This document shows positions 23,741-64,000 of a stretch of DNA of 64,000 bases, in pieces. The stretch is from Kiritimatiellia bacterium (lineage in GTDB: Bacteria > Verrucomicrobiota > Kiritimatiellia > RFP12 > UBA1067): the NCBI GenBank assembly GCA_045599445.1, contig JAZRWB010000075.1, positions 4,697 to 68,696 on the forward strand, read 5' to 3'. Both the position numbers and the translations under genes were made by a program. Position 1 is the first letter of the stretch; each line of letters begins with the position of its first letter. The notes beneath the pieces are model-generated. The model made no database searches. It was not told the DNA's origin and was given only the letters and a program-made list of their open reading frames with translations.

Positions 23741-24540
23741 TGGACTTTTTCGCGATAGCATCGCTTGCCTTGTGGGGACTCGCGTTCGCGGCTCTCGCCG
23801 GGTATTTCGCGAGCGTCGCCGGGGAAGTCACCTACGTCACGCTCGCCGACGGAAGACGTGCGGAGCGTTCGCTCCCCGTGATCGTCAAGGCGCTTTTGCC
23901 GCTCGCGCCGAATTTCTTTCCGCTGGTGCGTCGGCCGATTTTCCGCGGAACGGTCGAACGCGCCGAGTCGCTGCTCGTGCAGGGCGGCTTCGAGGGACTC
24001 GTTTCGGGCGAGGAATTCGTCGCGCTCAAACTGATGCTCCTTTGGGTGCTGCCGGACATTTGGCTTTATTCGGCGGTGAAGCGGCGCCATCTCGCGATTC
24101 AACGCGCTTTGCCGTTCGTGCTCGATTTGCTGACGCTCTCGGTCGAGGCGGGCATGGACTTCATCAACGCGCTTCAGCGCAACTGCAAATCGCGTCGGCT
24201 CGATCCGCTGAACGAGGAGCTTTTGCGGATGACGAAGGAGATTCAAGTCGGATCCTCGCGCAAGGAGGCGCTTAAGAATATGGCGGATCGGGTTCGCCAG
24301 GGCGACCTCAAATCGGTTGCCTTCGCGCTCATCCAGGCCGATGAACTGGGCGTTTCGATCGGCGCGATTTTGCGCATTCAGTCCGAGCAAATGCGTTCGC
24401 GGCGCTTCGACCGCGCCGAGAAGCTGGCGGCGGAGGCGCCGGTGAAGATGTTGGGGCCGTTGATGCTTTGCATCTTTCCGGCGGTTTTCATAATTTTGCT
24501 CGGGCCGGTATTGACGCAGGCGATGAAAGGAGTGTTCTAA
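23740..24540 (+). CDS. Type II secretion system F-domain protein (TadB/TadC-like, single domain)
   Basis: 'LPFVLDLLTLSVEAGMDFINAL', 'EALKNMADRV', 'ADELGVSIGAILRIQSEQMR..R...AEKLAAEAPVKML.PL..CIFP' matches the GspF/TadC family pattern. Its ATG shares 1 nt with the metG stop. Confidence 0.75.
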   Translation: MDFFAIASLALWGLAFAALAGYFASVAGEVTYVTLADGRRAERSLPVIVKALLPLAPNFFPLVRRPIFRGTVERAESLLVQGGFEGLVSGEEFVALKLMLLWVLPDIWLYSAVKRRHLAIQRALPFVLDLLTLSVEAGMDFINALQRNCKSRRLDPLNEELLRMTKEIQVGSSRKEALKNMADRVRQGDLKSVAFALIQADELGVSIGAILRIQSEQMRSRRFDRAEKLAAEAPVKMLGPLMLCIFPAVFIILLGPVLTQAMKGVF

Positions 24541-24541
24541 G

Positions 24542-25828
24542 ATGGGCGAACGGCTGGAGCTCCTGATTGTCGCCGGCGGACCGGTCGGTCGGCGTTTCGA
24601 AGTCGCCAAAGGCGGAATTCGCCTTGGGCGGTCTTCTTCCAACGACATCCACATTTCCGACGAGGAGCTTTCGCGCAACCACTGCCTTTTCGAGCCGGTC
24701 GACGAGCACGGAATCAGGGTAACCGATCTTGCGAGCGCGAACGGTACTTCGGTCAACGACGCCGACATCGGCGGCAAGCCGACGGATCTCAAGGCGGGCG
24801 ACGTAGTAAAGGCGGGCTCCGTGGAACTTAGGGTGGTGGAACCGGGATCGGACAAGGTCGATTTGGGCTTGGGCGCGAAGCGCGAGGAAGCGTCGGAGTC
24901 GGGCACGACGAAACGCCGTCGTTCGCCGTTCGCCAACGTGCTTTGGGCATTCGCCGTGCTGATTGTGGTTGCGGCGGTTTATCTCATCCTTTCTGCGCCG
25001 GTCAAGGTTTCCGAAAATCGCGCCTTGCCGCAACCCGTGTCTTCCGAGGTGAGGGAGATCGTCTACGAGCGGGTGCGCGCCGACGCGAACGGCATTTCGC
25101 GATACGCGCTTCAACTCGACGCGGACGGCGCGATGAAAGTTCGGGTCGACGAGGTGCCGGGCGAAAATCGCCACCACGCCGGCGGACGCGTTCTTTCCAA
25201 GGAGGCGCTCGGCAGACTCTTCGCCATCGTAGGGGAAAACCGCTTCCGCGATTTCGGACGCGACGACATCGGCTACGGAGAAAACCCGCAAGAGCTCAAA
25301 ACCCGTTCGCTCAAGGTCGTCTATTCCGATCGGGTACGCAAGTTCGCGGCGACCGACGAGAACGCGCCTAATGACTTCCGCGCGATTTGCGAGGAGCTGG
25401 AGACGTTTTCCAAGGACGAGTTCGGAATTTGGATGGTGGATTGTTCGCGCGAGGAACTGGAGCGGATGTTCGAGGAGGAACTCGCCAAGGGCGACGCGAA
25501 GTGGGAGGATCGTGACGTCAGTCACGGTAATCTCTACAACGCCATCGTCGCCTACCGCAACGCCGCCACCTACGCGGAGATGCTGCCGCGCGAAAACAAG
25601 GAACGCGCTCGCGCCCGGCTCGCGAAGGCGACGGCGAAACTCGACGAGGCCTACAATCGTCGACGGGTGGACGCGGATCTCGCGATCAACACCCGCAATT
25701 GGGAGAGGGCGCGAGAGGAGCTGAACGTTCTTTTGGAGATGATTCCCGACCGCGACGACGAGCGCCATCTGACGGCGTCGCGCAAGCTGATGGACGTCGA
25801 GAATCGACTGAAGAAGGGAGGGCGGTGA
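24542..25828 (+). CDS. FHA-domain membrane protein
   Basis: N-terminal FHA ('IRLGRSSSNDIHISDEELSRNHCLFEP....GIRVTDLASANGTSVN'), one TM ('VLWAFAVLIVVAAVYLILSA'), and a ~280-aa extracytoplasmic domain of unknown type. Confidence 0.8.
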   Translation: MGERLELLIVAGGPVGRRFEVAKGGIRLGRSSSNDIHISDEELSRNHCLFEPVDEHGIRVTDLASANGTSVNDADIGGKPTDLKAGDVVKAGSVELRVVEPGSDKVDLGLGAKREEASESGTTKRRRSPFANVLWAFAVLIVVAAVYLILSAPVKVSENRALPQPVSSEVREIVYERVRADANGISRYALQLDADGAMKVRVDEVPGENRHHAGGRVLSKEALGRLFAIVGENRFRDFGRDDIGYGENPQELKTRSLKVVYSDRVRKFAATDENAPNDFRAICEELETFSKDEFGIWMVDCSREELERMFEEELAKGDAKWEDRDVSHGNLYNAIVAYRNAATYAEMLPRENKERARARLAKATAKLDEAYNRRRVDADLAINTRNWERAREELNVLLEMIPDRDDERHLTASRKLMDVENRLKKGGR

Positions 25829-25829
25829 G

Positions 25830-27142
25830 ATGCGGCGGATTCTGCTTGCAATCGCGCTCGCGGCCGGCGCCGTTTTTGCGGACGAGGAACGGGTGCAGAC
25901 GCGCGTTCAGCTTACTAGCCAGCCCGTCGGCGCCTCGATTTGCGTGGACGGGGAAGTTCGCGGCGTAACTCCGAAGACGCTCTTCGATCTTTCCAAGGGA
26001 CGCCACCGCATCAAGTATTCGCTCGCCGGATACGTCGACGAGGACCGTTTCGTGAACGTGAACAACGAGTCGCTCGTCGAGGATCACGCCTGCCTCGCGG
26101 AAGAGAAGGGATTGCTCCTGCTCAAAACCGATCCCGAGGGTTGCAACATCTCCGTCGACGGCGTTTCGATCGGCGAAACGCCGATGCTGATTACCAGTCT
26201 TTCCGCCAAGGATCGCTATTCGGTGAAGCTCGCCAAAACCGGTTATCAGCCACTGGTCGTCGAGGTTCGGTTCGACGGGCGCAATCCGGTGGTGCGCGAG
26301 GAGAAGTTGATTCCTGATTCCGGCGCGATCGAGATCGTTTCCGAGCCGTCGGGCGCGAAGGTAATGGTGAACGGAATCGTGCGCGGCACGGCGCCGATCA
26401 AGGTAACCGGAATTCCGAAGGGTCGGGCGAAGGTGGAGTTGGCGCTGGACGGATTCAAGGGCGAAAGTCGCGAACTCGCAATCGCCGCCGGCGACGAACA
26501 GACGCTGGTAGTCGCCCTCAAGGCGCTGCCGGGAACGTTGCATCTGACGTCGGTTCCGTCGGGGGCGAGATTCTATCTCGGCGACGAGGCGCGGGGTACG
26601 GCTCCGCTTTCCATCGCTGGGCTCGAACCCGGCAGTTACGTCGTTCGTGCCGAGCTCGATGGATACGCGCCGCTTGTGAGAACGATCGAACTTGAAAACG
26701 GCGCGTCCGCGCGCGAGGAGTTCCGACTGGAGAACGTAATGGGGCGGCTGGAAGTTCGCACTTCGCCGTCGGAAGTCCAGCTGGTGATGGACGGCAAGGT
26801 CGTCGGCGTCACTAAGTCGAGCGATCCCGACGCCGAATTCAGCGACGTTTTCACAATCGAGAATTTGATGGAAGGCGAGCATTCGCTGGTGGCGCGCAAG
26901 GACGGCTACGCGGAGACGATTCGCCATCCCAAGATTCGTCAGGGCAAGACCTCCCAGCACAATCTGCGGCTGAAGCGGGTTTTCGTTCCGGATATCGAAA
27001 TCGTCACTTCGCGCGGCAACGTCTATCGGGGAATCATGAAGGGCACCACCGCCGAAACGCTGGAAGTGGAAATTTCCCTGGGAATCGTCCGCAGCTTTCC
27101 GCGCTCGGAGATTCGTGAAGTCAAGACGCTGACGAACGAAAA

Positions 27143-27146
<4 letters not shown>
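25830..27146 (+). CDS. PEGA-domain repeat protein, secreted
   Basis: Signal peptide MRRILLAIALAAGAVFA. About five repeats of the 'S.P.GA.V.V.G..RG.TP..I.GL..G.Y.V...L.GY' PEGA pattern. Confidence 0.8.
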
Positions 27147-27886
<740 letters not shown>

Positions 27887-27928
27887 TATTCACAGTATTT
27901 CGACACAATCAAACTAAGGAAACAAACA

Positions 27929-28621
27929 ATGGTATATTCGACTGAGGTACAGCACCAGTGCCCGCTCATGAAGGGGTGCAATCACGGTCCGGCCCCGATC
28001 CCCGAAGAGGGCAAGTGGGTTCAGGCTCGCGAAATCAAGGACATCTCCGGTTATACGCACGGCGTCGGCTGGTGCGCGCCGCAGCAGGGAGCGTGCAAGC
28101 TCTCGCTGAACGTCAAGAACGGCGTCATCGAAGAGGCGCTGGTCGAGACGATCGGCTGCTCGGGCATGACCCACTCGGCGGCGATGGCCTCGGAAATTCT
28201 CGTCGGCAAGACGCTTCTCGAGGCGCTCAACACCGACCTCGTGTGCGACGCGATCAACACGGCGATGCGCGAACTTTTCCTGCAGATCGTCTACGGCCGC
28301 ACTCAGAGCGCGTTTTCGGACGGCGGACTCGTCGTCGGAGCGGGGCTCGAGGATCTCGGCAAGGGTCTTCGCTCGATGGTCGGTACGATGTACGCGACCA
28401 AGGCGAAAGGTCCGCGCTACCTCGAAATGACCGAGGGCTACTGCACGCGCATGGCGCTCAACAAGCAGGGCGAGGTCATCGGCTACGAATTCGTTTCGCT
28501 CGGCAAGATGACCGATTTCATCAAGAAGGGGCTTTCCCCGAACGAGGCGTGGGAGAAGGCGAAGGGCCACTACGGCCAGTTCGAAGGCGCCGCCAAGTAC
28601 ATCGATCCTCGCAAGGAATAA
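27929..28621 (+). CDS. NifU/IscU-like Fe-S scaffold homologue (partner of GGGtGRT protein)
   Basis: Cys-rich N-terminus (CPLMKGC, GWCAPQQGAC) and 'ETIGCSGMTHSAAMASE', which resembles the IscU 'GCGSAIASS' block. I recall this gene type being paired with GGGtGRT genes. Confidence 0.55.
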   Translation: MVYSTEVQHQCPLMKGCNHGPAPIPEEGKWVQAREIKDISGYTHGVGWCAPQQGACKLSLNVKNGVIEEALVETIGCSGMTHSAAMASEILVGKTLLEALNTDLVCDAINTAMRELFLQIVYGRTQSAFSDGGLVVGAGLEDLGKGLRSMVGTMYATKAKGPRYLEMTEGYCTRMALNKQGEVIGYEFVSLGKMTDFIKKGLSPNEAWEKAKGHYGQFEGAAKYIDPRKE

Positions 28622-28638
28622 GGAAAGGAATTTAGGCA

Positions 28639-29673
28639 ATGGCTACGAAGAAAACCACCAAGAAGTCGGGCGAGAAGCTGTTCGAGGGTTTCGAGCGTCG
28701 CGAGGCGAAGATTCTCGCCGCGCTGAAGCCCTACGGCATCAAGTCGATCGAGGAATGCGCCGCGATCTGCAAGAAGGCGGGCATCGACCCCTACAAGATC
28801 GTCGAGGAAACCCAGCCGATTTGCTTCGAGAACGCGAAGTGGGCGTACACCGTCGGCGCGGCGATGGCGATTAAGAAGGGTTGCAAGAAGGCGAAGGACG
28901 CGGCGGCGGAAATCGGCGTCGGTCTCCAGGCGTTCTGCATTCCCGGCTCGGTCGCGGAGAATCGCCAGGTCGGCCGCGGTCACGGCAATCTCGGTGCGAT
29001 GCTGCTCGACGACGCGACCAAGTGCTTCGCGTTCCTCGCGGGTCACGAGTCGTTTGCGGCGGCGGAGGGCGCGATCAAGATCGCGCTCAACGCGAACAAG
29101 GTTCGCAAGACCAACCTCAAGGTCATCCTCAACGGTCTCGGCAAGGACGCGGCGTACATCATCAGCCGCATCAACGGCTTCACCTACGTGAAGACCTCGT
29201 TCGACAACAAGACCGAGAAGCTGAAAGTCGTCTCCCGCAAGGCGTTCTCCAAGGGCCCGCGCGCGGCGGTCGACTGCTACGGCGCGGACAACGTCCCCGA
29301 GGGCGTCGCGATTATGAAGTTCGAGAACGTCGGCGTTTCGATCACCGGCAACTCGACGAATCCCACGCGCTTCCAGCATCCGGTCGCCGGCACCTACAAG
29401 AAGTGGTGCTGGGAGAACGGACGCAAGTATTTCTCGGTCGCCTCGGGCGGCGGCACCGGCCGCACGCTCCATCCCGATAACATGGCCGCCGGTCCTTCGA
29501 GCTACGGCATGACCGACACCATGGGCCGGATGCATTCCGACGCGCAGTTCGCGGGGAGCTCCTCCGTGCCGGCGCACGTCGAGATGATGGGCCTCATCGG
29601 CATGGGCAACAACCCGATGGTCGGCGCCACGGTCGCCGTGGCGGTCGCGGTCGAGGAAAGCTTCAGGAAATAA
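28639..29673 (+). CDS. GGGtGRT family protein (function unknown)
   Basis: Contains the eponymous motif 'ASGGGTGRTLHPDNMAAGPSSYGMTD'. At 344 aa it is the typical family size. Confidence 0.8.
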   Translation: MATKKTTKKSGEKLFEGFERREAKILAALKPYGIKSIEECAAICKKAGIDPYKIVEETQPICFENAKWAYTVGAAMAIKKGCKKAKDAAAEIGVGLQAFCIPGSVAENRQVGRGHGNLGAMLLDDATKCFAFLAGHESFAAAEGAIKIALNANKVRKTNLKVILNGLGKDAAYIISRINGFTYVKTSFDNKTEKLKVVSRKAFSKGPRAAVDCYGADNVPEGVAIMKFENVGVSITGNSTNPTRFQHPVAGTYKKWCWENGRKYFSVASGGGTGRTLHPDNMAAGPSSYGMTDTMGRMHSDAQFAGSSSVPAHVEMMGLIGMGNNPMVGATVAVAVAVEESFRK

Positions 29674-29681
29674 GCTTAAAA

Positions 29682-29758
29682 GGACCCTTAGCTCAGTCGG
29701 TCAGAGCGGGAGACTCATAATCTCTTGGTCGTGGGTTCAAGTCCCGCAGGGTCCACCA
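29682..29758 (+). tRNA. tRNA with CAT anticodon (elongator tRNA-Met type; could be tRNA-Ile2 if lysidine-modified)
   Basis: Cloverleaf drawn by hand: acceptor GGACCCT/AGGGTCC, D stem GCTC/GAGC, anticodon arm GGAGA-CTCATAA-TCTCT, T arm GTGGG-TTCAAGT-CCCGC, discriminator A, encoded CCA. G1-C72 and the absence of a GGG/CCC anticodon stem argue against an initiator. Confidence 0.9.
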
Positions 29759-29770
29759 ACTTGAAAGGCG

Positions 29771-31210
29771 ATGGACTCTTTTCGATTGATTAGGGCGTTG
29801 GCGGTGGCGACTGCGGTCGCCATCGTCGGCTGTTCCACGATCATCGACGCTCGCGACGCGCAGGAAAGTGTGGCCGCCAAGAGCGCGGACGACGCCGCCT
29901 TGCCGGAGGATGGCGACGTCCGTCTCCACGGTTACACGCTCGAGGATCTCGTCGGTTACGCGCTCACCAACCGTCCGTCGATGGTCTCCGCCAAGCTGGC
30001 GGTGGACGACGCCCGGTTGGCGATGAAGGAGGTCGCCGCGGACGCGCCGGTTTTGAGCGACACGCCGTGGACTTCGCCGAAAGTTTCGCTTTCCGGCTCG
30101 TACTCCGAGTCGAGCAACGGCTCCAAATTGGAGGACGCCGATTGGCATTTGAACGGCGATTCGTCCGCCGCGGTTTCGCTGGATTTGCTGATTTGGGATT
30201 TTGGTCGCAACGATGCGCGAAAGGCGGCGCAGGCGGAGCGTACGGTGGCGGCCGAGCTGGAGTTGGTGAACGAGGGCTACGCGGTTTTTGCCGATGTTGC
30301 GAACGCCTATTTCACCTTGCTCGAAAAAGGCGCTCTGCTGGAAGTCGCCTGCACCAACGAATACGAATACTCGGTGCATCTCGACCGGGCCGAGCGGCGT
30401 TCGGAGAACGGCGAGGCGAAGCGGCTGGATGTTTTGAAGGCTCGGCTCGATTACGCGTCGGCGCGCGAGAAAACGATCAACGCCTCCAATGACGTGGTGA
30501 CCGCCGGCGCGGAGTTTTTGCGGTCGCTGGGCGTGGACGCCTCGAACGGCAGCCGTCGCGACGTCATCGATTTCGAGGGAAATGCGCTTACTTTCGCGAT
30601 GCGCGGGTTTCCGGAGTCGGATTACGACGTCGCCGGAGCGTTCGATTTTGCGCGTACCAATTCGCCGACGATGAAGATCGTCCGGGCGAAATTGCGCGCC
30701 GCGAGCGCCAACGTCGACTATGCGATCGCCGATTTAATGCCGTCGGTTTCAGTTTCCGGATCGTTCAGTTGGACGGATCCGCTGTGGTTTTTCAAATGGG
30801 GTGCTTCGGGAGTGCAGTCGATATTCCAGGGCTTTCGCAAGACCACTGCGGTCGATCGGGCGGTTGTCGCGATGGAACAGGCGGCGGCCGATGTCGACCG
30901 CGCCGAGCAACAGCTTTCGCTTGATCTCGAACTTGCGATTGCGGCGCGCGACAACGCTCGCGAGGCGCGAAGGACGGCGAGCGACGCGCTGAAGCAGGCG
31001 AAGGAGAATCTGGAAATGGTCAAGCGACAGTTTGACGTCGGCGAGGCGAGCCGAGTGGATTTCACCAGCGCCGTCGCCTCCTGCATCAAGGAGCTCGGAA
31101 ATCGCATCGGCGCGTTTTACCAGGGACAACGCGCGGAAGCGGCGATTTTCGCGCTCGTGGGACGGTATCCGGTTTACGAGGAAAAGGTGCTTACAGAGGA
31201 GGATGAATGA
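29771..31210 (+). CDS. TolC-family outer-membrane efflux lipoprotein (cassette 2)
   Basis: Lipobox 'AIVGCST'. Two-repeat coiled-coil OEP-like sequence. First gene of the second four-gene efflux operon. Confidence 0.75.
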   Translation: MDSFRLIRALAVATAVAIVGCSTIIDARDAQESVAAKSADDAALPEDGDVRLHGYTLEDLVGYALTNRPSMVSAKLAVDDARLAMKEVAADAPVLSDTPWTSPKVSLSGSYSESSNGSKLEDADWHLNGDSSAAVSLDLLIWDFGRNDARKAAQAERTVAAELELVNEGYAVFADVANAYFTLLEKGALLEVACTNEYEYSVHLDRAERRSENGEAKRLDVLKARLDYASAREKTINASNDVVTAGAEFLRSLGVDASNGSRRDVIDFEGNALTFAMRGFPESDYDVAGAFDFARTNSPTMKIVRAKLRAASANVDYAIADLMPSVSVSGSFSWTDPLWFFKWGASGVQSIFQGFRKTTAVDRAVVAMEQAAADVDRAEQQLSLDLELAIAARDNAREARRTASDALKQAKENLEMVKRQFDVGEASRVDFTSAVASCIKELGNRIGAFYQGQRAEAAIFALVGRYPVYEEKVLTEEDE

Positions 31211-32439
31211 AAATAACGTATCCGCTATTGGCGCTCGCGTTGCTCGTTTCCGGCTGCGACGGCGATTCCGCGACGGAAGCCAAGATTGCGCGAAAGTTTC
31301 GCTTCGCGCCGATTACGCGCGCCGACGTCGTGCGCACGGTGGAGGCCACGGGAACGGTTACGCCGCGCAATACTTCGAACGGAATTCCGGTCGGGGCGCA
31401 GGTTACCGGCAAGGTAGTGAAGCTTTTCGTGGACTACAATTCCGTCGTTACCAACGGCCAGATCGTCGCGCTCATCGATCCGTTGGTGTACGAAGCGGCC
31501 TACAAGAGCGCGGTCGCGCAACTGCACGTCAATCAGGCGAATTTGCGGCAATGCGAAGTTGCGCTGGTTCTGGCGGAAAAGACCCTGAAGCGCAAGCAAC
31601 ACCTCTTCGAGCGTCAGCTTTGCTCCGAGGCCGATCTCGACTCGGCGATCGAGAATCGGGATATTGCGGCCGCCAAGGTGGAAAGCGCCAAGGCGTCGGT
31701 CGAGCAGAGCGAGGCGTCCGCCAGTCGCGCCGAAGCGGATCTCAGCTATTGCACGATTCGCTCGCCGGTCAACGGCATCGTAATCGACCGCAAGGTGGAG
31801 GAGGGCGAAACCGTGGTTTCGTCGATGAACGCGACGCCGGTATTGACGATCGCCGAGGATCTCAAGGTGATTTGGATCGAGGCGACCGTACCCGAGGCGG
31901 ACGTCGGCAATCTCAAGGTCGGGCAGGAGGTTTCCTTCACCGCCGACGCCTATCGCAAGCGATTTAGGGGAACGGTTAAGCAAATTCGGCTCGCCCACAC
32001 GACGACCAACAACGTGGTAACCTATCCGATTATCATCGAGGCGGAGAACCCCGGCGAAATGCTGTTTCCGGGGATGACTGCGACGTTGACGATCGAAACC
32101 GCTCGCGTCGAGAACGTGCTTTGCGTGGCGGCGGCGGCGTTTCGGTTTCGTCCGAAGGACGCGGATCTGGACGGAATCGAAGAAGTGCCCAGAGGTCGCA
32201 AGTTGTGGTTCGTCGGCGATGCGGGCGAGTTGAGCCCGGTGGTCGTCGAAGAGGGCATCTCCAACGACTCCTTTACCGAAATTCTCGGAGCCGACGAGGC
32301 GCTTGAAGGCAAGGAGGCGATCATCGGTTACCAGACGGCGTCGACGCTCGTACCCGCGAGCGACGTTTCCAATCCGTTTATGCCCAAAATGCCTGGACGC
32401 GGCAAGAACAAGGGCACGGCTCCGGAACCGCGCAAGTAA
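31207..32439 (+). CDS. HlyD/MacA-type periplasmic adaptor lipoprotein
   Basis: Lipobox 'LLVSGCDG', 'GTV.P.....V.AQV.G.V..L.VD.N..V..GQ..A.ID', a coiled-coil hairpin, and 'YCTIRSPVNGIVI.R.V..G'. Confidence 0.82.
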   Translation: MKITYPLLALALLVSGCDGDSATEAKIARKFRFAPITRADVVRTVEATGTVTPRNTSNGIPVGAQVTGKVVKLFVDYNSVVTNGQIVALIDPLVYEAAYKSAVAQLHVNQANLRQCEVALVLAEKTLKRKQHLFERQLCSEADLDSAIENRDIAAAKVESAKASVEQSEASASRAEADLSYCTIRSPVNGIVIDRKVEEGETVVSSMNATPVLTIAEDLKVIWIEATVPEADVGNLKVGQEVSFTADAYRKRFRGTVKQIRLAHTTTNNVVTYPIIIEAENPGEMLFPGMTATLTIETARVENVLCVAAAAFRFRPKDADLDGIEEVPRGRKLWFVGDAGELSPVVVEEGISNDSFTEILGADEALEGKEAIIGYQTASTLVPASDVSNPFMPKMPGRGKNKGTAPEPRK

Positions 32440-33125
32440 TGGAACATCTGATCGAGGTCTCCGATTTGCGCAAGACGTATTGCATCGGCGACGAACCGGT
32501 GCATGCGCTGGACGGAGTCTCGCTTACCGTGGACAATGGCGAATTCGTGGCGATTATGGGGTCTTCGGGTTCCGGCAAGTCCACGATGCTCAACATCCTC
32601 GGTTGTCTCGACACCCCGACTTCCGGCTCGTACAAGCTCGACGGGCTGGAGGTCTCCAAGCGCTCGGCGACGGAACTGGCGCGAATTCGCAATCGCAAGC
32701 TCGGATTCGTATTCCAGAATTTCAACTTGTTGCCGCGCACGCGGGCGGTCGAACAGGTGGAGCTGCCGGATCTTTACATGGGCAGACTGACATGGATCAA
32801 GCGGCGGCGTCGGGCGCTGGAGTTGTTGCGGCGCGTCGGATTGGGCGGACGCACCGGACACACCCCGGCGCAACTCTCCGGCGGCCAACAGCAGCGGGTG
32901 GCGATTGCGCGGGCGCTGATGAACGAGCCGCCGGTGCTGTTCGCCGACGAGCCGACGGGCAATCTCGACACCAAAAGCTCGATTGAAATCATGAACCTCT
33001 TTACCGAGCTTTCCAACGAGGGAATCACCATCGTCATGGTTACGCACGAAGACGACATCGCCGCGTACGCCAAACGTCGAATCGTGATGCGCGACGGACG
33101 GATGATCAAGGACGAGCGACAATGA
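32439..33125 (+). CDS. ABC transporter ATP-binding protein (MacB/LolD-type), paralogue of 9862..10548
   Basis: 'GSSGSGKST', 'LSGGQQQRVAIARAL', '[11 protein letters not shown]', '[14 protein letters not shown]' (the last block is identical to cassette 1). Confidence 0.92.
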   Translation: MEHLIEVSDLRKTYCIGDEPVHALDGVSLTVDNGEFVAIMGSSGSGKSTMLNILGCLDTPTSGSYKLDGLEVSKRSATELARIRNRKLGFVFQNFNLLPRTRAVEQVELPDLYMGRLTWIKRRRRALELLRRVGLGGRTGHTPAQLSGGQQQRVAIARALMNEPPVLFADEPTGNLDTKSSIEIMNLFTELSNEGITIVMVTHEDDIAAYAKRRIVMRDGRMIKDERQ

Positions 33126-34348
33126 ACTTCTGGATGATCTTCAAGGTCGCGATACTGGCGATTCTCCGCAACAAGACGCGGAGCTTGCTTACCTGCCTCG
33201 GCATCATCGTCGGCATCGCCGCGGTCATCGCGGTAATGGCGATCGGCAAGGGCGCGCAGACGATGATGGTTCGGCAAATTTCCGCGATGGGCAACAACCT
33301 GGTGATGGTTTTTCCCGAGCGCTCGGGTCGAGGCGCGGTTTCGATCGGCATGGGTCAGGGTCAGACGATGACCGCGGCCGACGCCGAGGCGATCAAGCGC
33401 GAATTGCCCCACCTCGTACAGGGCGTGAGCCCGCAAGTGCGAGCGCAGTGCCAAATGATGTATGGATCGAAGAACTGGTCGGGTAGCGTGCAAGGCGTCT
33501 CCACCGACATCACTATGATCGGCAATTGGACGGTGACCGACGGGCGGTTCTTCTCCGAGGACGAGGAGCGGCGGTGCGCCCGCGTTTGCGTAATCGGCAC
33601 CACGGTCAAGGCGAATCTCTTTTCCGACGACGATCCGGTCGGCAAGACCATTCGGCTCGGGGCGATGACCTACAAGGTAATCGGCGTCCTCGGCTCGAAG
33701 GGCGCAAACAACTTCGGCCAGGATCAGGACGACGTCATCATGGCGCCGTACACCTCGGTTCAGCGTTACCTTCAGCGCTCGAAGTTCCGCACCATCAACA
33801 TGATGAACATTTCGCTCATAACGATGGACGACTTGGAGGAGGCCAAACGCGAAATCGGCGCGCTTTTGCGGCAACGCCACCATCTCGCGGATTATCAAGA
33901 CAACGACTTCGAGACTCGCGACACGACCGAAATCATGAACACCATTGGCTCGGTTACTGGTTTGATGACCGTATTGCTGACGGCGGTGGCGGCGATTTCG
34001 CTTCTAGTCGGCGGCATCGGCATCATGAACATTATGCTGGTTTCGGTTACCGAACGCATCAAGGAAATCGGCCTGCGCATGGCCATTGGCGCGACGCCGG
34101 CGAACATTCTCGTGCAATTTCTTCTGGAGGCGGTGGTGCTTTCCACGGTCGGCGGCGCAATTGGAATCGTGGTCGGCATCGTCGGCGCACAAACAATCGG
34201 AGCGGTTAAGGACTGGCCAATCGAAATTGAGGCGGCGAGCGCGATTTGCTCGTTTCTCTTCTCGGCGATGGTCGGCATGTTCTTCGGTTTTTATCCGGCG
34301 TATCGGGCGTCCAAGCTCAACCCGATCGACTGTCTTCGCTACGAATAA
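33122..34348 (+). CDS. ABC transporter permease, MacB/FtsX type, paralogue of 10545..11819
   Basis: 'LRNKTRSLLTCLGIIVGIAAVIAV', a periplasmic insert, 'GGIGIMNIMLVSVTERIKEIGLRMAIGA', and terminal 'NPIDCLRYE'. Confidence 0.88.
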   Translation: MNFWMIFKVAILAILRNKTRSLLTCLGIIVGIAAVIAVMAIGKGAQTMMVRQISAMGNNLVMVFPERSGRGAVSIGMGQGQTMTAADAEAIKRELPHLVQGVSPQVRAQCQMMYGSKNWSGSVQGVSTDITMIGNWTVTDGRFFSEDEERRCARVCVIGTTVKANLFSDDDPVGKTIRLGAMTYKVIGVLGSKGANNFGQDQDDVIMAPYTSVQRYLQRSKFRTINMMNISLITMDDLEEAKREIGALLRQRHHLADYQDNDFETRDTTEIMNTIGSVTGLMTVLLTAVAAISLLVGGIGIMNIMLVSVTERIKEIGLRMAIGATPANILVQFLLEAVVLSTVGGAIGIVVGIVGAQTIGAVKDWPIEIEAASAICSFLFSAMVGMFFGFYPAYRASKLNPIDCLRYE

Positions 34349-34349
34349 A

Positions 34350-34358
34350 TGGTATAAT
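34350..34358 (+). promoter_or_regulatory. Extended -10 promoter element TGgTATAAT (purH N-half)
   Basis: Lies 2 nt after the permease stop and 25 nt upstream of ATG 34384, with an AAGGAG RBS in between. Confidence 0.5.
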
Positions 34359-34383
34359 ACGCGAAAGTAAAGGAGTTCCGAAA

Positions 34384-35064
34384 ATGTCCCTCAATATCGT
34401 AAGTGAAATCGACAATCGCATCGCCATCCGTAACGTGCTTATGTCCGTGTCCGACAAGACCGGGCTCGAGACGTTCGTGCCCGCGCTCGTCAAGGCGTGC
34501 CCCGGCGTGAAAATATATTCGACCGGCGGAACTTACGCGAAGGTGAAGGAGATTCTCGGCGCCGACTTCGGAAAGACGCTGGTCGCGGTTTCGGATTACA
34601 CGGGCCAGCCGGAAATGCAGGGCGGACTCGTGAAGACGCTGGATTTCAAGATTTATCTGGGGCTTTTGTCGGAGAAGTACAACGACGCCCATCAGGCCGA
34701 CCTCAAGCGGCTGGCGGCGAACCCGATCGACATGGTGGTGGTGAATCTCTATCCGTTCCGCGAAACGGTCGCCAAGCCGGGCGTGACTCCGGAGATGGCT
34801 CGTACCAACATCGACATCGGCGGGCCTTGCATGGTTCGCGCGTCGGCGAAAAACTATTTGCGCGTCGCGTCGGTTACCGATCCGCTGGATTACGCCAACA
34901 TCGCGAGCGAACTCGCGGCACATGACGGAACGCTGGGGCTTTCCACGCGCTTCAAGCTCATGAAAAAGGCCTTTGCCCATACCGCGGAATACGACGGCGC
35001 GATTTCCAAGTTCTTCACCACTCGCACTTGGGAAGAAGTCGATAAGACTTACAACCAGCACTAA
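34384..35064 (+). CDS. purH: IMP cyclohydrolase / MGS-like domain of PurH (stand-alone N-terminal half)
   Basis: 'IRNVLMSVSDKTGLE.F...L......KIYSTGGTY..V......V.AVSDYTG.PEM.GG.VKTL..KIY.GLL....N..H..DL......IDMVVVNLYPF' is the PurH N-terminal domain pattern. The protein ends after about 226 aa. ATG 34384 has an AAGGAG RBS and a TGgTATAAT promoter. Confidence 0.85.
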   Translation: MSLNIVSEIDNRIAIRNVLMSVSDKTGLETFVPALVKACPGVKIYSTGGTYAKVKEILGADFGKTLVAVSDYTGQPEMQGGLVKTLDFKIYLGLLSEKYNDAHQADLKRLAANPIDMVVVNLYPFRETVAKPGVTPEMARTNIDIGGPCMVRASAKNYLRVASVTDPLDYANIASELAAHDGTLGLSTRFKLMKKAFAHTAEYDGAISKFFTTRTWEEVDKTYNQH

Positions 35065-36074
35065 TGAAGGTCGTCCACCTCGTTCCGGCGATGGAACAGG
35101 GCGGCGTCGAGCGCGTCGTCTGCGACTTGTGTCGCGCCCTCGTCGAGCACGGGGTGGAGAGTACGGTGGTCTCCAAGGGCGGTCGTTTGGTCGCCGGACT
35201 TGTCGAGGCGGGCGCCCGTCACGTCGAATTGGACGTGAAGTCCAAAAATCCGCTTACCTGCCTTTGGCGGGCGAGGAAGTTGCGGAAGTTGCTTGAATCC
35301 GAAAGACCCGATCTCGTTTGTGCGCATTCCCGGGTTCCCGCGTGGTTGTTTGTGCTGGCGAATCGTGCCTTGCATCTCAAATGGATAACCTACGCCCATG
35401 GCGCGAATTCGGTGTCGGCGTATTCCGCGGTGATGACCAAGGGCGATTTGATCGTAGCGCCGTCTCGTTTTCTCGCCGGTTTTCTCAAGGAAAACTACGG
35501 CATCGGCGACGAGCGGATTCGGGTTGTGCATCCCGCCGTGGATACGGAGAGATTCAATCCCGACCGAGTGGATCGCGAATTCGTCGCCGAGCGGCGTAAA
35601 GCTTGGGGAATAAAGGACGGCGATTACGTGGTGATGGCGGTGGGGCGCATCACGCCGCTTAAGGGTTACGAGGAGTTGATTCGCGGTTTTTCGACGACGG
35701 AAAAAAAGCTGGTAATCGTCGGAGAGGCGGACAAGCGCCACTTAAGTTATCTTCAGCGTTTGAAGGGTATCGCCGGCGCGAACGTCGTGTTCGCCGGTTA
35801 CGAGAGCGATATTCCGGGATGTCTGGCGATTGCCGACGAGGTCGTTTCGGCCAATTCCTCGAAACCGGAATCGTTCGGGCTTTCGGTCGCCGAGGCGTAT
35901 GCGATGAACAAACGGGTTTCGGCCAAACGGTTCGGCGGCGTCGGGGAGATCATGGACGAAGTCGAATCTAGCGGAAAGCCGTCGACGCGGGAGGCGGTGG
36001 AAGAGCTTTACGGATTTGCGCGAATGGCGCGCGAAACCAAAGTCGTTTACGATTCGCTGATCGGGCGAATATGA
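35064..36074 (+). CDS. Family 4 (GT-B) glycosyltransferase
   Basis: 'KVVHLVPAMEQGGVERVV' N-terminus and C-terminal 'PESFGLSVAEAYAM' (E-x7-E region), typical of GT4/WaaG-like enzymes. Confidence 0.8.
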   Translation: MKVVHLVPAMEQGGVERVVCDLCRALVEHGVESTVVSKGGRLVAGLVEAGARHVELDVKSKNPLTCLWRARKLRKLLESERPDLVCAHSRVPAWLFVLANRALHLKWITYAHGANSVSAYSAVMTKGDLIVAPSRFLAGFLKENYGIGDERIRVVHPAVDTERFNPDRVDREFVAERRKAWGIKDGDYVVMAVGRITPLKGYEELIRGFSTTEKKLVIVGEADKRHLSYLQRLKGIAGANVVFAGYESDIPGCLAIADEVVSANSSKPESFGLSVAEAYAMNKRVSAKRFGGVGEIMDEVESSGKPSTREAVEELYGFARMARETKVVYDSLIGRI

Positions 36075-59742: not shown

Positions 59743-61914
59743 ATGAAAAAGATGATTGGTGCGCTGTGCTGTGTATTGCTGTCATTGTCTCTATTTTCCG
59801 ACATCAAAGTTTCGGATGTGAAGGTATTTTCGGGTTATCCGTGGCATGAGGTGGCTATCGGATACACGATTACCGGCACTGCGGATGAAACCTTTGGATT
59901 GCAGATTTCCGCTACGGATAATGTGAGTGGTAATAGTTACGAATGTAAAACGCTTGATGGTGTGAGTTTGACAGAAGGTAACCATATTGTAAAGTGGAAT
60001 GCTTCTGCGGATGGAGCAAAGTTTAAATCAAGTAGTGTGGTTTTTACTGTTAAAGTCGGAAAACTCCAATATTGTGTAGTCGACCTTTCGGGCGGAACGA
60101 TGGCTACAAGCTACCCTGTAACGGAACTGATAGACGTTCCGTGCGGCGGTTGGACAGATGAGTACAAGACGACAAAGCTCGTATTACGGCGCATAGAGGC
60201 GGGATCGTTTATCATGGGAGACGACCAGGCGAACGAAGTGCATCGTGTGACACTAACATGCCCGTTCTATATGGGTGTCTTTGAAGTGACACAAAAACAG
60301 TGGTCTCTTGTGATGGGGACGGTTCCTTGGTCGAGTACTAGATACGGAAAGGGCGAAGATTATCCAGCGCATTACATTTCGTATGATATGATTCGAGGTA
60401 ATGTAAAGGGTGCCCTTTGGCCGATTTCGTCGGAGGTAGATCTAGACAGTTTTATGGGAAAACTTCAATTGAAGACTGGGCTCGTTTTCGATTTACCGAC
60501 TGCGGCTCAATGGGAGTATGCCTGTCGTGCGGGATCAACAACGACCTACTATTGGGGTAATGTTATACATGGCGATTTTGCGTGGTATTCTTCCAATTCA
60601 AATGGTAAGGCACATCCTGTCGGAACAAAGACACCAAATGCCTGGGGACTTTATGATATGAGTGGTAACATGTGGGAAAGATGTAGGGATTGGGCTGGAT
60701 CGTTGGTGTATGGAATGGATCCTCAAGGTGTGTACTTTGACGTTGGACGAGAGGATCGTGGTGGTTCGTTTGACAATTCGGAAGGGAGTCTTGTGTCATC
60801 CTTGCGTCACAGTCAAAGTCCGGAAGTCCCGGACGATGACTTTGGATTTCGCGTTTCTAGAACTCTTGTTGCTAATTGTTCAGTCGTATTTAACGCTACC
60901 GGTGGAGCGGTGGGAATGGCATCACGAGTAATCAATTGTGGTACACCTCTCGGTGTACTTGAGACCCCCGTACGAGAAGGGTTCGAGTTTTTGGGTTGGT
61001 ACACGGCTGAAACGGGCGGGACTCGTTTCGACGAGTCAGCGATTGTGCGTGGCGATTTGACGCTTTATGCGCGATGGGTGCCGATAGATGAAACTGAACT
61101 GTATTGTGTCGTTGATCTTTCGGGGGGGACAAGCGTGACTAACTATTCAGTATCGTATATGAACGCTGTTCCTGAGGGAGGTTGGACGGATGAGTATAAG
61201 ACAACAAAACTCGTATTGCGCCGTTTGAATGCGGGCACGTATGTCATGGGGAATGATCAAATGGATGAGACGCATCGAGTGACGCTCACGAAATCGTTCT
61301 ATGTGGGTGTCTTCGAAGTGACGCAGAAACAATGGTCTCTTGTGATGGGGACGAATCCCTGTGCCAACACTTCTTACGGGAAAGGGGATGATTATCCTGT
61401 TCATTATGTCTCATATAATATGATTCGTGGCAGTTTGGAGGGGGCTCAATGGCCGACATCATCGACCGTTGATACGATGAGCTTTGTCGGTCAATTGAGA
61501 ACGAAGACAGGACTTGATTTTGATCTGCCGACTGAAATACAGTGGGAATATGCGTGTCGTGCGCATTCTGTGACCGGATATTATTGGGGTAATTCTATGA
61601 ATGATGATTACGCATGGTATGATTCAAATTCTGGTGGCAAAACACATCCGGTTGGAAGGAAACGACCGAATGCTTGGGGGCTGTACGACATGTGTGGCAA
61701 TGTGTGCGAATGGAATCTTGACTGGTATGACTCGACCCTGCCGTACGGTACAGAACCAAGGGGGCCTTCTTCTTCGGGGGTGGGGCGGGTGTTTCATGGT
61801 GGTGGCTGGTTTGCTAATGCGAACAGCTGCACGTCATCCTATCGGGGCGGTTGTCCTCCGGTGGGTGCCAACAATGACAGCGGTTTTCGCCTAGTCAGAA
61901 CTCTGTCCAAGTAA
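59743..61914 (+). CDS. Secreted protein with Ig-like N-domain and two FGE-sulfatase (SUMF1/C-type-lectin-fold) domains separated by a Listeria-Bacteroides repeat
   Basis: Signal peptide MKKMIGALCCVLLSLSLFS. Two copies of 'GGWTDEYKTTKLVLRR...G.FEVTQKQWSLVMGT...YP.HY.SY.MIRG...WEYACRA......YYWGN....DYAWY..NS.GK.HPVG.K.PNAWGLYDM.GN..E'. Between them lies 'FNATGG...REGFEFLGWYT...G.RFDE' (Flg_new-type repeat). Confidence 0.75.
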   Translation: MKKMIGALCCVLLSLSLFSDIKVSDVKVFSGYPWHEVAIGYTITGTADETFGLQISATDNVSGNSYECKTLDGVSLTEGNHIVKWNASADGAKFKSSSVVFTVKVGKLQYCVVDLSGGTMATSYPVTELIDVPCGGWTDEYKTTKLVLRRIEAGSFIMGDDQANEVHRVTLTCPFYMGVFEVTQKQWSLVMGTVPWSSTRYGKGEDYPAHYISYDMIRGNVKGALWPISSEVDLDSFMGKLQLKTGLVFDLPTAAQWEYACRAGSTTTYYWGNVIHGDFAWYSSNSNGKAHPVGTKTPNAWGLYDMSGNMWERCRDWAGSLVYGMDPQGVYFDVGREDRGGSFDNSEGSLVSSLRHSQSPEVPDDDFGFRVSRTLVANCSVVFNATGGAVGMASRVINCGTPLGVLETPVREGFEFLGWYTAETGGTRFDESAIVRGDLTLYARWVPIDETELYCVVDLSGGTSVTNYSVSYMNAVPEGGWTDEYKTTKLVLRRLNAGTYVMGNDQMDETHRVTLTKSFYVGVFEVTQKQWSLVMGTNPCANTSYGKGDDYPVHYVSYNMIRGSLEGAQWPTSSTVDTMSFVGQLRTKTGLDFDLPTEIQWEYACRAHSVTGYYWGNSMNDDYAWYDSNSGGKTHPVGRKRPNAWGLYDMCGNVCEWNLDWYDSTLPYGTEPRGPSSSGVGRVFHGGGWFANANSCTSSYRGGCPPVGANNDSGFRLVRTLSK

Positions 61915-62005
61915 TTATATGGCAAAAGGAATCGGGTACGTGTGTTAGGTTCGGCAGTACCCTTCCGTGGGCCGATGAAGAAAAGAATGCGAAATGGATA
62001 GGTTG

Positions 62006-62143
62006 ATGAAAATGAAGAAAATTGTGTTGCTGGCTGCTCTGACGTTTTCAGTTATGTATTCTGCTGGGGCCGAGGTCTATGCTGAGGCGAGCTCGGTTGC
62101 AGTAACTGTTGACACGATGTCTGTCGAGGGGGGGGGATGTTGA
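62006..62143 (+). other. Orphan signal-peptide leader ORF (45 codons), out of frame with the downstream large ORF
   Basis: MKMKKIVLLAALTFSVMYSAGAEVYAEASS... ends at a TGA 5 nt after the G9 tract. It fuses in frame to ORF 62109..63857 if the tract is G8. Confidence 0.75.
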
Positions 62144-63857
62144 GGCGCCTGTTTCGATCGCCTACGGGAGCGTAGGCCCTTTTGATTGTACACTTTCCTT
62201 AGATGGCGTTGAATTGATGTCGTCTACGGAAAATGGAATCTATCGGTGGTGCCCGAATTCACTTGGAGAACATACGCTCGTGTGGTCTTCCGGGAATATG
62301 GCGATGACGACGACGGTGAATGTCGTGTCGCTGGTGATGCCTACTCCGGAAATTACGCCTGTGGACGGTACGGTGATTGGCGATTCACAATCAGTCATGA
62401 TTTCAAGTGTTGTGAATGATGCGCAAATCTACTACACAATAGATGGCAGTGAGCCGACGAGTTCGTCGGCGGCCTATCAGAAGCGCTTCCGCGTGTCGGG
62501 TAAGACGACCGTCAAGGCGATTGCAATGCGTGAGGGGTGGACCGATAGCGTGGTCGCAGTTGCCCATTACGCGCTCGGGCAGTGCCCTGATCCAGTGATC
62601 GTTTCGGCGGGCGGGGAGACTTTCCTGCACAATGGCAATCAGGTTTCGATTGACTGGAATTGCGCGGATGGCGTTCTGCGGTATACGACGGACGGCAGCG
62701 ATGTGACGGAGACGAGTCCGGCGTATGCGGGTGCGTTTACGATTGACGACACGACCGTGATCAAGGCGAAGGCGTTTGGTGAAACGTACTTCGACAGCGT
62801 GCAGGTAGAATTGACGGTGACGCGCGAGTGGGAACCGGTTGCGATGCCGGTGATCGCCGCGCCGGAAACGTTCAGCGGCGGCAAGACAACGGTGACAATC
62901 TCGTGTACGACCGAGGGGGCGCTCATTCGCTATACGACGGATGGTAGCGAACCCAACTCGCATTCGCGCCGCTATTCGGGTCCGTTCGAGGTGAGCGAGA
63001 CTATGGTTGTGAAGGCGTTTGCGAGTTTGGCAGACTACACCAATTCTGCAATCGCCACGAAATTGATCACGAAGGTGTGGGCGATTGGCGATTCCGTGGG
63101 GTTGCCCGACCACTCGTTTACGACGGAGGGTGGCGCCGGCTGGGTCGACGAGGGCGGAGTCGCGATGAGGTCCGGCGCGATTGCGGACGAACAGGTGTCG
63201 ACCCTGAAGTCGACCTTCGTCGGCAAGGGACGCCTGACATTCGACCTCAAGACCTCGTGCGAAGAGGACGATCCGGTCTTCATGGAATACGACCATGCCG
63301 AGATATGGATCGACGGCGTTCGCAAGGTGAAGCGCGACGGCGTGCACGACTGGTCGACGTTTGTCTACGATCTTGGCGAGGGACCGCATGTTGTCGAATG
63401 GAAGTATGTGAAGGACGACCTCGACGAGGTCCGATACCCGGGCGAAGATTGCATTTGGGTGAGGAATGTCGTCTGGCTCCCCGAATCTACCTGTACGACG
63501 GAAGTACCGGTTCCGCTTTCCTGGATTAGGGAGAAGTTCGGCGATCTCGGTACCTACTACTACGATTACGAGGAGAAGGCCAACGGGGTTGCCGCGAACG
63601 GGCATAGGGTCTGGGAATGCTACGTCGCCGGCGAAGACCCGACGGACGCCACTTCGAAGCTTACGGCGCTCATTGAAATGTCCAATGGCGTGCCGTTGGT
63701 TTCCTGGACGCCGGATTTGAATGAAGGTGCGGGTAAGGTCGGTACGAGAATCTACACCATCATGGGCTCGAACGATTTGAAGAATTGGTCGGCCGTTCCC
63801 GATGGACAGGAAGTGAACTTCAAGTTCTTCAAGGTCGTGGTGGAAATACCGCGTTGA
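62109..63857 (+). CDS. Large surface/secreted protein with three chitobiase/hexosaminidase-C-like (Fn3-associated) repeats; currently frameshifted from its signal peptide
   Basis: Three repeats of the type 'I.YT.DGSEP...S..Y.G.F.V...T.VKA.A......S.....'. The ~250-aa C-terminal domain ends 'NWSAV......FFKVVVE'. The TTG start in the track is probably artefactual; see the G9 tract. Confidence 0.65.
   Translation: MTRCLSRGGDVEAPVSIAYGSVGPFDCTLSLDGVELMSSTENGIYRWCPNSLGEHTLVWSSGNMAMTTTVNVVSLVMPTPEITPVDGTVIGDSQSVMISSVVNDAQIYYTIDGSEPTSSSAAYQKRFRVSGKTTVKAIAMREGWTDSVVAVAHYALGQCPDPVIVSAGGETFLHNGNQVSIDWNCADGVLRYTTDGSDVTETSPAYAGAFTIDDTTVIKAKAFGETYFDSVQVELTVTREWEPVAMPVIAAPETFSGGKTTVTISCTTEGALIRYTTDGSEPNSHSRRYSGPFEVSETMVVKAFASLADYTNSAIATKLITKVWAIGDSVGLPDHSFTTEGGAGWVDEGGVAMRSGAIADEQVSTLKSTFVGKGRLTFDLKTSCEEDDPVFMEYDHAEIWIDGVRKVKRDGVHDWSTFVYDLGEGPHVVEWKYVKDDLDEVRYPGEDCIWVRNVVWLPESTCTTEVPVPLSWIREKFGDLGTYYYDYEEKANGVAANGHRVWECYVAGEDPTDATSKLTALIEMSNGVPLVSWTPDLNEGAGKVGTRIYTIMGSNDLKNWSAVPDGQEVNFKFFKVVVEIPR
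62128..62136 (+). repeat. Homopolymeric G9 tract (putative slipped-strand phase-variation site)
   Basis: Counted directly: nine consecutive G at 62128-62136, lying between the signal-peptide frame and the body frame. Confidence 0.95.
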
Positions 63858-63926
63858 GGCAAGGGATAACCGTCCCGATCGTCCGTCCTTAGGAACCCGT
63901 TGGGGGCAGACCGCGAAGTACAGCGC

Positions 63927-63983
63927 CTCCGCGTTCTCCGCGCTCTCTGCGTGAGGAAGATGTCTCACGCGGAGAACGCCGAG
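63927..63983. repeat. Imperfect inverted repeat / long hairpin downstream of the last gene
   Basis: CTCCGCGTTCTCCGCG (63927-42) pairs with CGCGGAGAACGCCGAG (63968-83): 15 of 16 positions, with one C/C mismatch. No T-tract follows. It is close to the window edge. Confidence 0.4.
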
Positions 63984-64000
63984 TACACAGAGGCTTTTCA

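Follow-up and report, generated by a model that had tools for sequence, protein, structure and literature searches.

A gene for a secreted protein with Ig-like repeats (62006..63857, + strand; 616 aa in the frame of its homologues) is interrupted, in the 64,000 nt stretch of DNA analysed here (the window), by a homopolymer of nine G situated about 7% into the gene (62128..62136, + strand; codons 41-44 of 616). We propose that this candidate slippage tract probably constitutes a slipped-strand ON/OFF translational switch, assembled in the OFF state, that acts on a non-catalytic surface protein composed of Ig-like domains. As judged from sequence, the genomic and genus context favours such a slippage switch, because long G/C runs are in excess in a genome that avoids GGG-GGG, the body of the gene is under purifying selection, and other tracts of the genus lie at genes for exported proteins. 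The mechanism would be a textbook one, that of a classical translational poly-G switch.

The interrupted gene, its homologues and its product

Direct reading of the sequence and a script both gave exactly nine G at 62128-62136, on the + strand and with unique flanks (GTCGA-G9-ATGTTGAGG), bearing out the initial annotation in the position of the tract and in the existence of a 45-codon leader closed by a TGA at 62141-62143. This leader ORF (62006..62143, + strand), which corresponds to the OFF state as assembled, translates from ATG 62006 as MKMKKIVLLAALTFSVMYSAGAEVYAEASSVAVTVDTMSVEGGGC followed by the stop, and starts with a Sec-type signal peptide comprising an n-region (MKMKK), a hydrophobic core (IVLLAALTFSVMY) and a SAGA/EVYA cleavage region, after which there are some 20 mature residues before the TGA. 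The signal peptide was called by eye and by homology, those of the homologues being equivalent. The body frame, from DVEAPVSIAYG to its stop (62136..63857, + strand), contains no internal stops. It is part of a long ORF (62109..63857) in the +1 frame relative to the leader, which had been described as lacking an ATG start: its first codon is indeed TTG, but the body does contain in-frame ATGs. One of these was taken as the start of P0001, the public gene call, a 519-aa product that begins with MAMTTT and for this reason lacks a signal peptide.

Substitution of the tract in silico showed that G8 and G11 fuse the leader to the body ending at 63857, with products of 616 and 617 aa, respectively, and that G7, G9, G10 and G12 lead to peptides of only 55, 45, 56 and 46 aa; this matches the frames previously checked by hand, with G8 and G11 as ON and G9 and G10 as OFF lengths. 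In the G8 frame, the tract reads GAG GGG GGG GAT (E-G-G-D) and the fused reading includes the stretch SVEGGDVEAPVSIAYG. The switch-like anatomy that had been claimed for the locus, with an early intragenic G9 and a frame that is restored by G8 or G11, is therefore present. Under the proposed mechanism, slipped-strand mispairing during replication would add or remove G residues in the tract; lengths of 3n+2 (G8, G11) would yield the complete product of 616/617 aa, signal peptide included, which is the ON state, and any other length would lead to a stop 2-14 codons past the tract and to a leader peptide of 45-56 aa only, the OFF state, to which the G9 of the assembly consensus would belong. The Gly residues encoded by the tract fall between the first strand of the N-terminal domain (VAVTVD) and the following one (VEAPVSIAYG), and the extra Gly of a G11 allele should be tolerated between them. 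We infer that different tract lengths coexist at this position among the cells of the population, and switching might be useful to the organism, for instance against recognition by phages, the host or predators.

A search of around 5.8 billion proteins retrieved full-length homologues of 620-634 aa, P0002, P0003 and P0006 (70, 67 and 64% identity, respectively), that span 100% of the fused reading, N-terminal signal peptide included. The alignment with P0002 crosses the tract uninterrupted in the G8 frame (VDTSFVEGADVGVP in P0002 versus VDTMSVEGGDVEAP here or, in a wider alignment, VSVDTSFVEGADVGVPFAIVYGS in P0002 and VTVDTMSVEGGDVEAPVSIAYGS in the window); since homology extends across the tract, leader and body are a single gene. 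At the site of the tract the homologues carry only G3 or G4 (GAA GGG GCA GAC in L003 and GAT GGG ACG AAT in L004), versus GAG GGG GGG GAT plus one extra G in the window, indicating that the long tract is lineage-specific and that it was built by three to four substitutions towards G, two of them synonymous relative to L003. The family is patchily distributed, with representatives in 18 of 117 genomes of the genus, and the genes of this family from the 17 other genus genomes contain no long intragenic tract.

The region orthologous to positions 61900-62500 was not found by a DNA search of 40 relatives; likewise, neither an exact 24-mer from the 5′ flank nor a protein-pattern scan with the N-terminal 203 aa produced any match in the metagenome or genome contig collections, and exact-product look-ups with the neighbour gene, P0001 and the DUF2971 gene retrieved no record. 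The assembly and protein searches found no ON allele. Besides the window protein, the 90% cluster comprises just P0121, which was evaluated as a second copy of the locus and rejected, as it has a different N-terminal module, which contains Flg_new, preceding a body that is more than 90% identical. The closest copy of the body is found in L006, a contig of GCA_045640385.1. In P0004 and P0005, in turn, the same body is fused to an FGE-sulfatase domain, as found in the neighbour gene of the window. Comparison of these sequences suggests that the family is modular, with N-terminal modules swapped on a conserved C-terminal body.

The body of the gene is under purifying selection and does not look like a decayed pseudogene. 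There is no further lesion or stop across its 582 codons, its dN/dS ratio is 0.20 (at a dS of 0.29) with respect to L006 and 0.16 with respect to L003, and the window gene keeps all of the 90+ columns that are invariant in the alignment of homologues. Any inactivation of the gene would have to be very recent, and the G9 tract would make it reversible.

Pfam recognizes in the product three CHB_HEX_C_1/Fn3_assoc domains and nothing else, with 164.8 bits for PF13290 (CHB_HEX_C_1; gathering cut-off of 22) in three stretches and 132.4 bits for PF13287 (Fn3_assoc; gathering cut-off of 23), and a search of NCBIfam gave nothing meaningful. The AlphaFold model, made from a 40-sequence alignment, is confident (mean pLDDT of 86.6) and almost all beta, with an N-terminal Ig-like domain and then the three CHB_HEX_C_1 domains, followed by a jelly-roll-like beta domain, a few helical turns and, at the C-terminus, a small beta-sandwich. 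Foldseek matches were generic and limited to multi-Ig/Fn3 surface and adhesion proteins, including the GhpA grappling-hook filament, animal cell-adhesion molecules, a Bacteroides surface glycan-binding protein and accessory domains of Akkermansia glycosidases; a PDB profile search retrieved only accessory domains, from a beta-hexosaminidase and from an Akkermansia enzyme. With nothing meaningful from NCBIfam and only accessory-domain or generic matches from PDB and Foldseek, the assignment of a specific function was rejected. The description that suits the product best is that of an exported "beads-on-a-string" protein without catalytic function, either secreted or at the surface, and possibly glycan-binding. 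Separately, the C-terminal ~115 residues (63500-63857 in the window) recur, with 32-37% identity, at the end of other proteins from the same genome (C42:7895-8335, C43:17663-18031 and C61:8448-8816), and the motif RFFKVxVExP, at the very C-terminus, is invariant in the family; this C-terminal part may be a shared sorting or anchoring domain without a Pfam model.

The upstream neighbour (59743..61914, + strand) encodes an exported protein of 723 aa in which two FGE-sulfatase-type domains accompany a Listeria-Bacteroides repeat. The G7 run noted in the initial annotation for this gene (61122-61128) is real and in frame; it sits in TCG GGG GGG, a GGG-GGG dicodon that codes for the Gly-Gly pair of YCVVDLSGGTSV. 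In relatives, the FGE-sulfatase module either adjoins the CHB_HEX body (L004) or is fused to it (P0004 and P0005). An intergenic gap of 91 nt (61915..62005, + strand) separates the neighbour from the leader ATG; a consensus scan found no match to a sigma-70-like promoter in it, and co-transcription with the upstream gene is possible. Downstream there is an unrelated gene for an AAA-type ATPase. Runs of G in the coding strand cluster around the locus, with G7, G9, G6 and G7 in approximately 5 kb (61122-61128, the G9 tract, C75:69546-69551 and C75:70591-70597), on a background of only 51 G/C runs of at least 6 nt in the 1.73-Mb genome. The stop codon of the gene is followed by a GC-rich inverted repeat (window 63880-64000; CTCCGCGTTCTCCGCG...CACGCGGAGAACGCCGAG...AGAGGCTTTTCAGACGCGGTCCG), with a related copy ~2 kb downstream (C75:70540-70600), which looks like a REP-like or terminator-like element. 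Another feature, at 62160-62177 and 17 nt past the premature TGA, is a hairpin whose 7-bp stem is perfect and whose tail is T-rich. We considered it as a terminator that would tighten the OFF state and rejected the idea, as it folds no better than shuffled sequences (z = -0.15), terminator-like sites show no enrichment (1 found versus 3.6 expected) and the hairpin is absent in homologues.

Long G/C tracts in the genome and in the genus

The genome is a metagenome-assembled genome (MAG) of 1.73 Mb in 75 contigs, 81.6% complete, with 4.5% contamination and 88% coding. The number of A/T runs decays smoothly with length, whereas G/C runs drop steeply, from 5,352 of 4 nt to 651, 41 and 4 of 5, 6 and 7 nt, respectively, and then reappear, with one run of 8 nt, three of 9 nt, one of 10 nt and one of 13 nt. 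Expected counts were obtained by a generous extrapolation from the shorter runs, and six G/C runs of at least 8 nt were observed versus 0.36 expected (~17-fold excess, P ~2e-6), while five were of at least 9 nt versus 0.03 expected (P ~3e-10). Additionally, GGG is used less than any other Gly codon (15.8%), and GGG-GGG accounts for only 13 of 3,616 Gly-Gly pairs, some seven-fold under the value for independence. Intact ORFs include 38 of the 45 G/C runs of 6-7 nt versus one of the six runs of at least 8 nt, as well as 13 of the 21 A/T runs of at least 8 nt. Together, the excess of long runs and the avoidance of GGG-GGG make such tracts look retained rather than accidental.

The remaining long runs occur in diverse contexts. 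A G8 (C43:711-718) is found ~100 nt upstream of a minus-strand gene for an exported protein with signal peptide MRKILMVALGVVGAMVASA, and a G13 (C65:8036-8048) separates divergent genes, at ~170 nt upstream of one that encodes a CstA-like transporter. A G10 on the minus, coding strand (C45:35746-35755) is in frame within a 165-aa DUF3990-like ORF, located 215 nt upstream of a secreted giant gene of 3,815 aa (23740..35187). The other two G9 runs, both mid-ORF and coded I-GGG, belong to C49; that at C49:1323-1331 is in frame with a VEVYEL tail and that at C49:2182-2190 is out of frame with a LEIYERN tail. The region C49:1284-2260, which immediately follows a C5-DNA-methyltransferase-like ORF, is an array in which some six small paralogous ORFs with (V/I)YEL endings are repeated in tandem, and it also contains a G7 (1864) and a G6 (1621) on the same strand; this array may be a phase-variable mobile-element module.

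Intact MutS and MutL were found both here and in the relatives, which led us to reject the loss of mismatch repair as the cause of the excess of tracts. Accordingly, slippage rates should be below those of the repair-deficient Campylobacter or Helicobacter.

Tracts of G9 or longer occur in all 61 genomes of the genus searched, the longest being a G26 in G019. Many of them are located at genes for exported proteins, within signal-peptide codons (a G12 in L010, KKRLIALS[RGGGV]ICALSAIALALSISSARA, and a G10 in L068), just upstream of genes for lipoproteins or proteins with signal peptides (L026-L030 and L066), or in promoter spacers (L038, with TTGACA-N7-G8-TATAAT, and L047). The genome G019 (92% complete) contains three paralogous leaders with identical flanks, for ~40 nt on each side, that carry tracts of G13 (L061:689-701), G12 (L062:801-812) and G11 (L070:801-811). 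The layout of these leaders is TTGACA-17-TATTAT, ~35 nt, the G tract, a long inverted repeat and a gene for an exported protein (MKKLAYG...), so that the tracts lie in the transcribed leader and not in the promoter spacer. These paralogous leaders show directly that the tracts are unstable in length within the genus. Additionally, a G9 in G019:C18 (L063:801-809) is in frame in the middle of an ORF of 490+ aa, with the motif ELAKRKKQYEHYRDMLLNF[EGGG]; from its likeness to the conserved HsdS spacer, judged by eye, this ORF is a candidate phase-variable HsdS-like specificity gene.

The tracts also include tRNA 3′ ends, with the T-arm and acceptor stem (L014, L015, L022 and L069; GGTTCGAATC-C9-TCCGCCA); none of these runs, conserved from one species to another, is a switch, and genus-wide tract counts should exclude them. 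Three tRNA 3′ ends and several contig ends or low-complexity junk are found among the sampled genus tracts, and the tally of tracts beside genes for exported proteins is qualitative. On balance, and by a smaller step than for the switch itself, we lean towards the locus being one element of a genus-wide poly-G "phasome" in mismatch-repair-proficient Kiritimatiellia from the gut or rumen. Such a phasome would comprise dozens of tracts, from G8 to G26, distributed among signal-peptide codons, 5′ leaders and promoter spacers of genes for exported proteins, as well as in small mobile-element ORFs and the HsdS-like gene. In the literature searched, no paper tied Kiritimatiellae/Kiritimatiellota to phase variation or homopolymeric tracts.

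Alternatives to the proposed slippage switch

The gene could have been lost only recently, with a chance G8 having slipped to G9 to leave an effectively dead pseudogene whose switching is non-adaptive. The OFF length of the consensus, the lack of an ON allele among the sequences searched and the existence of orthologues without the tract would all agree with such a loss, and the family is dispensable in view of its patchy distribution. We nevertheless regard it as unlikely, because the body shows no second lesion and a dN/dS of 0.20, and because long G/C runs are ~17-fold in excess in a genome where GGG-GGG is otherwise avoided; moreover, a G9 reverts readily, which makes the loss reversible until other mutations accumulate. 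Somewhat more doubtful still is that the true tract is an in-frame G8 and the additional G an artefact of assembly or consensus, the homopolymer sequencing error that had been offered as the alternative and that we also find less likely. Whatever the platform, indels are most frequent at homopolymers of at least 8 nt, the source is a MAG with the fragmentation, completeness and contamination indicated above, and the +1 is exactly the offset from the frame of the homologues. However, the genome holds uninterrupted ORFs of 4,422, 4,038 and 3,816 aa, which makes a general indel error unlikely, and most of its G/C runs of 6-7 nt and of its A/T runs of at least 8 nt are in intact ORFs. The same assembly also placed in frame the G10 from C45 and the G9 at C49:1323, and the poly-G artefacts of two-colour chemistry sit at the ends of reads or contigs (L012, L018) and not mid-contig. 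Even a true G8 would leave a slippage-prone tract in the gene.

Recoding could also be the normal route of expression, by slippage of the RNA polymerase or by +1 slippage of tRNA-Gly on GGG GGG GGA. Homopolymer runs of approximately nine are known sites of RNA polymerase slippage, and the G run permits perfect re-pairing in the +1 frame; in spite of this, the frameshift is not conserved, since all full-length homologues are single-frame and have G3 or G4 at this point. In addition, the stop in the 0 frame comes two codons past the run and not at the slip site, and the search for a stimulatory element gave nothing beyond one nearby hairpin (62160-62177) with a z of -0.15. With single-frame homologues and no stimulatory structure, we consider recoding very improbable as the main route; at most, slippage of the RNA polymerase or of the ribosome could possibly make the OFF state of the switch leaky.

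Comparison with known systems and biological implications

The slippage switch that we propose resembles known systems from other bacteria. In Neisseria, pilC1 and pilC2 carry a poly-G early in the ORF, in or just after the signal-peptide region, where the gain or loss of a single G decides whether the complete protein or only a short leader peptide is made, in a mismatch-repair-proficient background. The locus described here shares with pilC the early poly-G in an ORF for an exported protein, the alternative between full protein and leader peptide, and the proficiency in repair, but its carrier is an uncultured PVC-group commensal from the gut, and its product is an unrelated Ig-like/CHB_HEX_C protein described here from sequence. 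Campylobacter jejuni also has poly-G contingency loci, and is not known to possess MutS/MutL-type mismatch repair. As in this species, the genome examined here avoids G runs in general and yet presents a genome-wide excess of G8-G13 tracts, which concentrate in surface-related genes; unlike in C. jejuni, MutS and MutL are both intact, which places it nearer to the repair-proficient Neisseria or Haemophilus than to Campylobacter.

A similar poly-G phase-variation gene of Neisseria is pgtA (PMC2193922). In Bifidobacterium breve UCC2003, bbr_0113 and bbr_1889 contain an intragenic G-tract replication-slippage switch in sortase-dependent pilus genes; these are out of frame in the reference sequence and regain expression through productive slippage, which is enriched in vivo, and the switch was shown by maximum-depth sequencing and phenotypes (PMC9187656). 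Both B. breve and the organism studied here are gut commensals with an intragenic G tract in a surface gene and an out-of-frame reference sequence, although B. breve is Gram-positive and its case concerns pilus subunits and has experimental proof. Within the PVC superphylum, 17 genes with tracts longer than 8 bp were found in Akkermansia muciniphila (e.g., G8 in Amuc_1413 and C10 in Amuc_2098), and phase variation at long G/C runs was proposed in 2011 from sequence only (PMC3048395). The two cases are similar in phylogeny, gut habitat and over-representation of long G/C runs at gene termini, and both are inferred from sequence, whereas the Akkermansia genes are for capsule biosynthesis. The genus examined here appears to carry more and longer tracts than Akkermansia, up to the G26 from G019.

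At the level of annotation, the public call is a 519-aa product that is truncated at the N-terminus and devoid of the signal peptide. A switch of this type would also matter for the reading of apparent pseudogenes in MAGs from this group and for strain-level microdiversity, for example under pressure from phages or the host. If the switch is true, an uncultured gut member of the Kiritimatiellia would vary its repertoire of surface proteins stochastically, by the same mechanism as Neisseria, Haemophilus, Campylobacter and B. breve. Likewise, if the phasome is true, an uncultured commensal lineage would possess a type of surface variation that has so far been documented mainly in pathogens.
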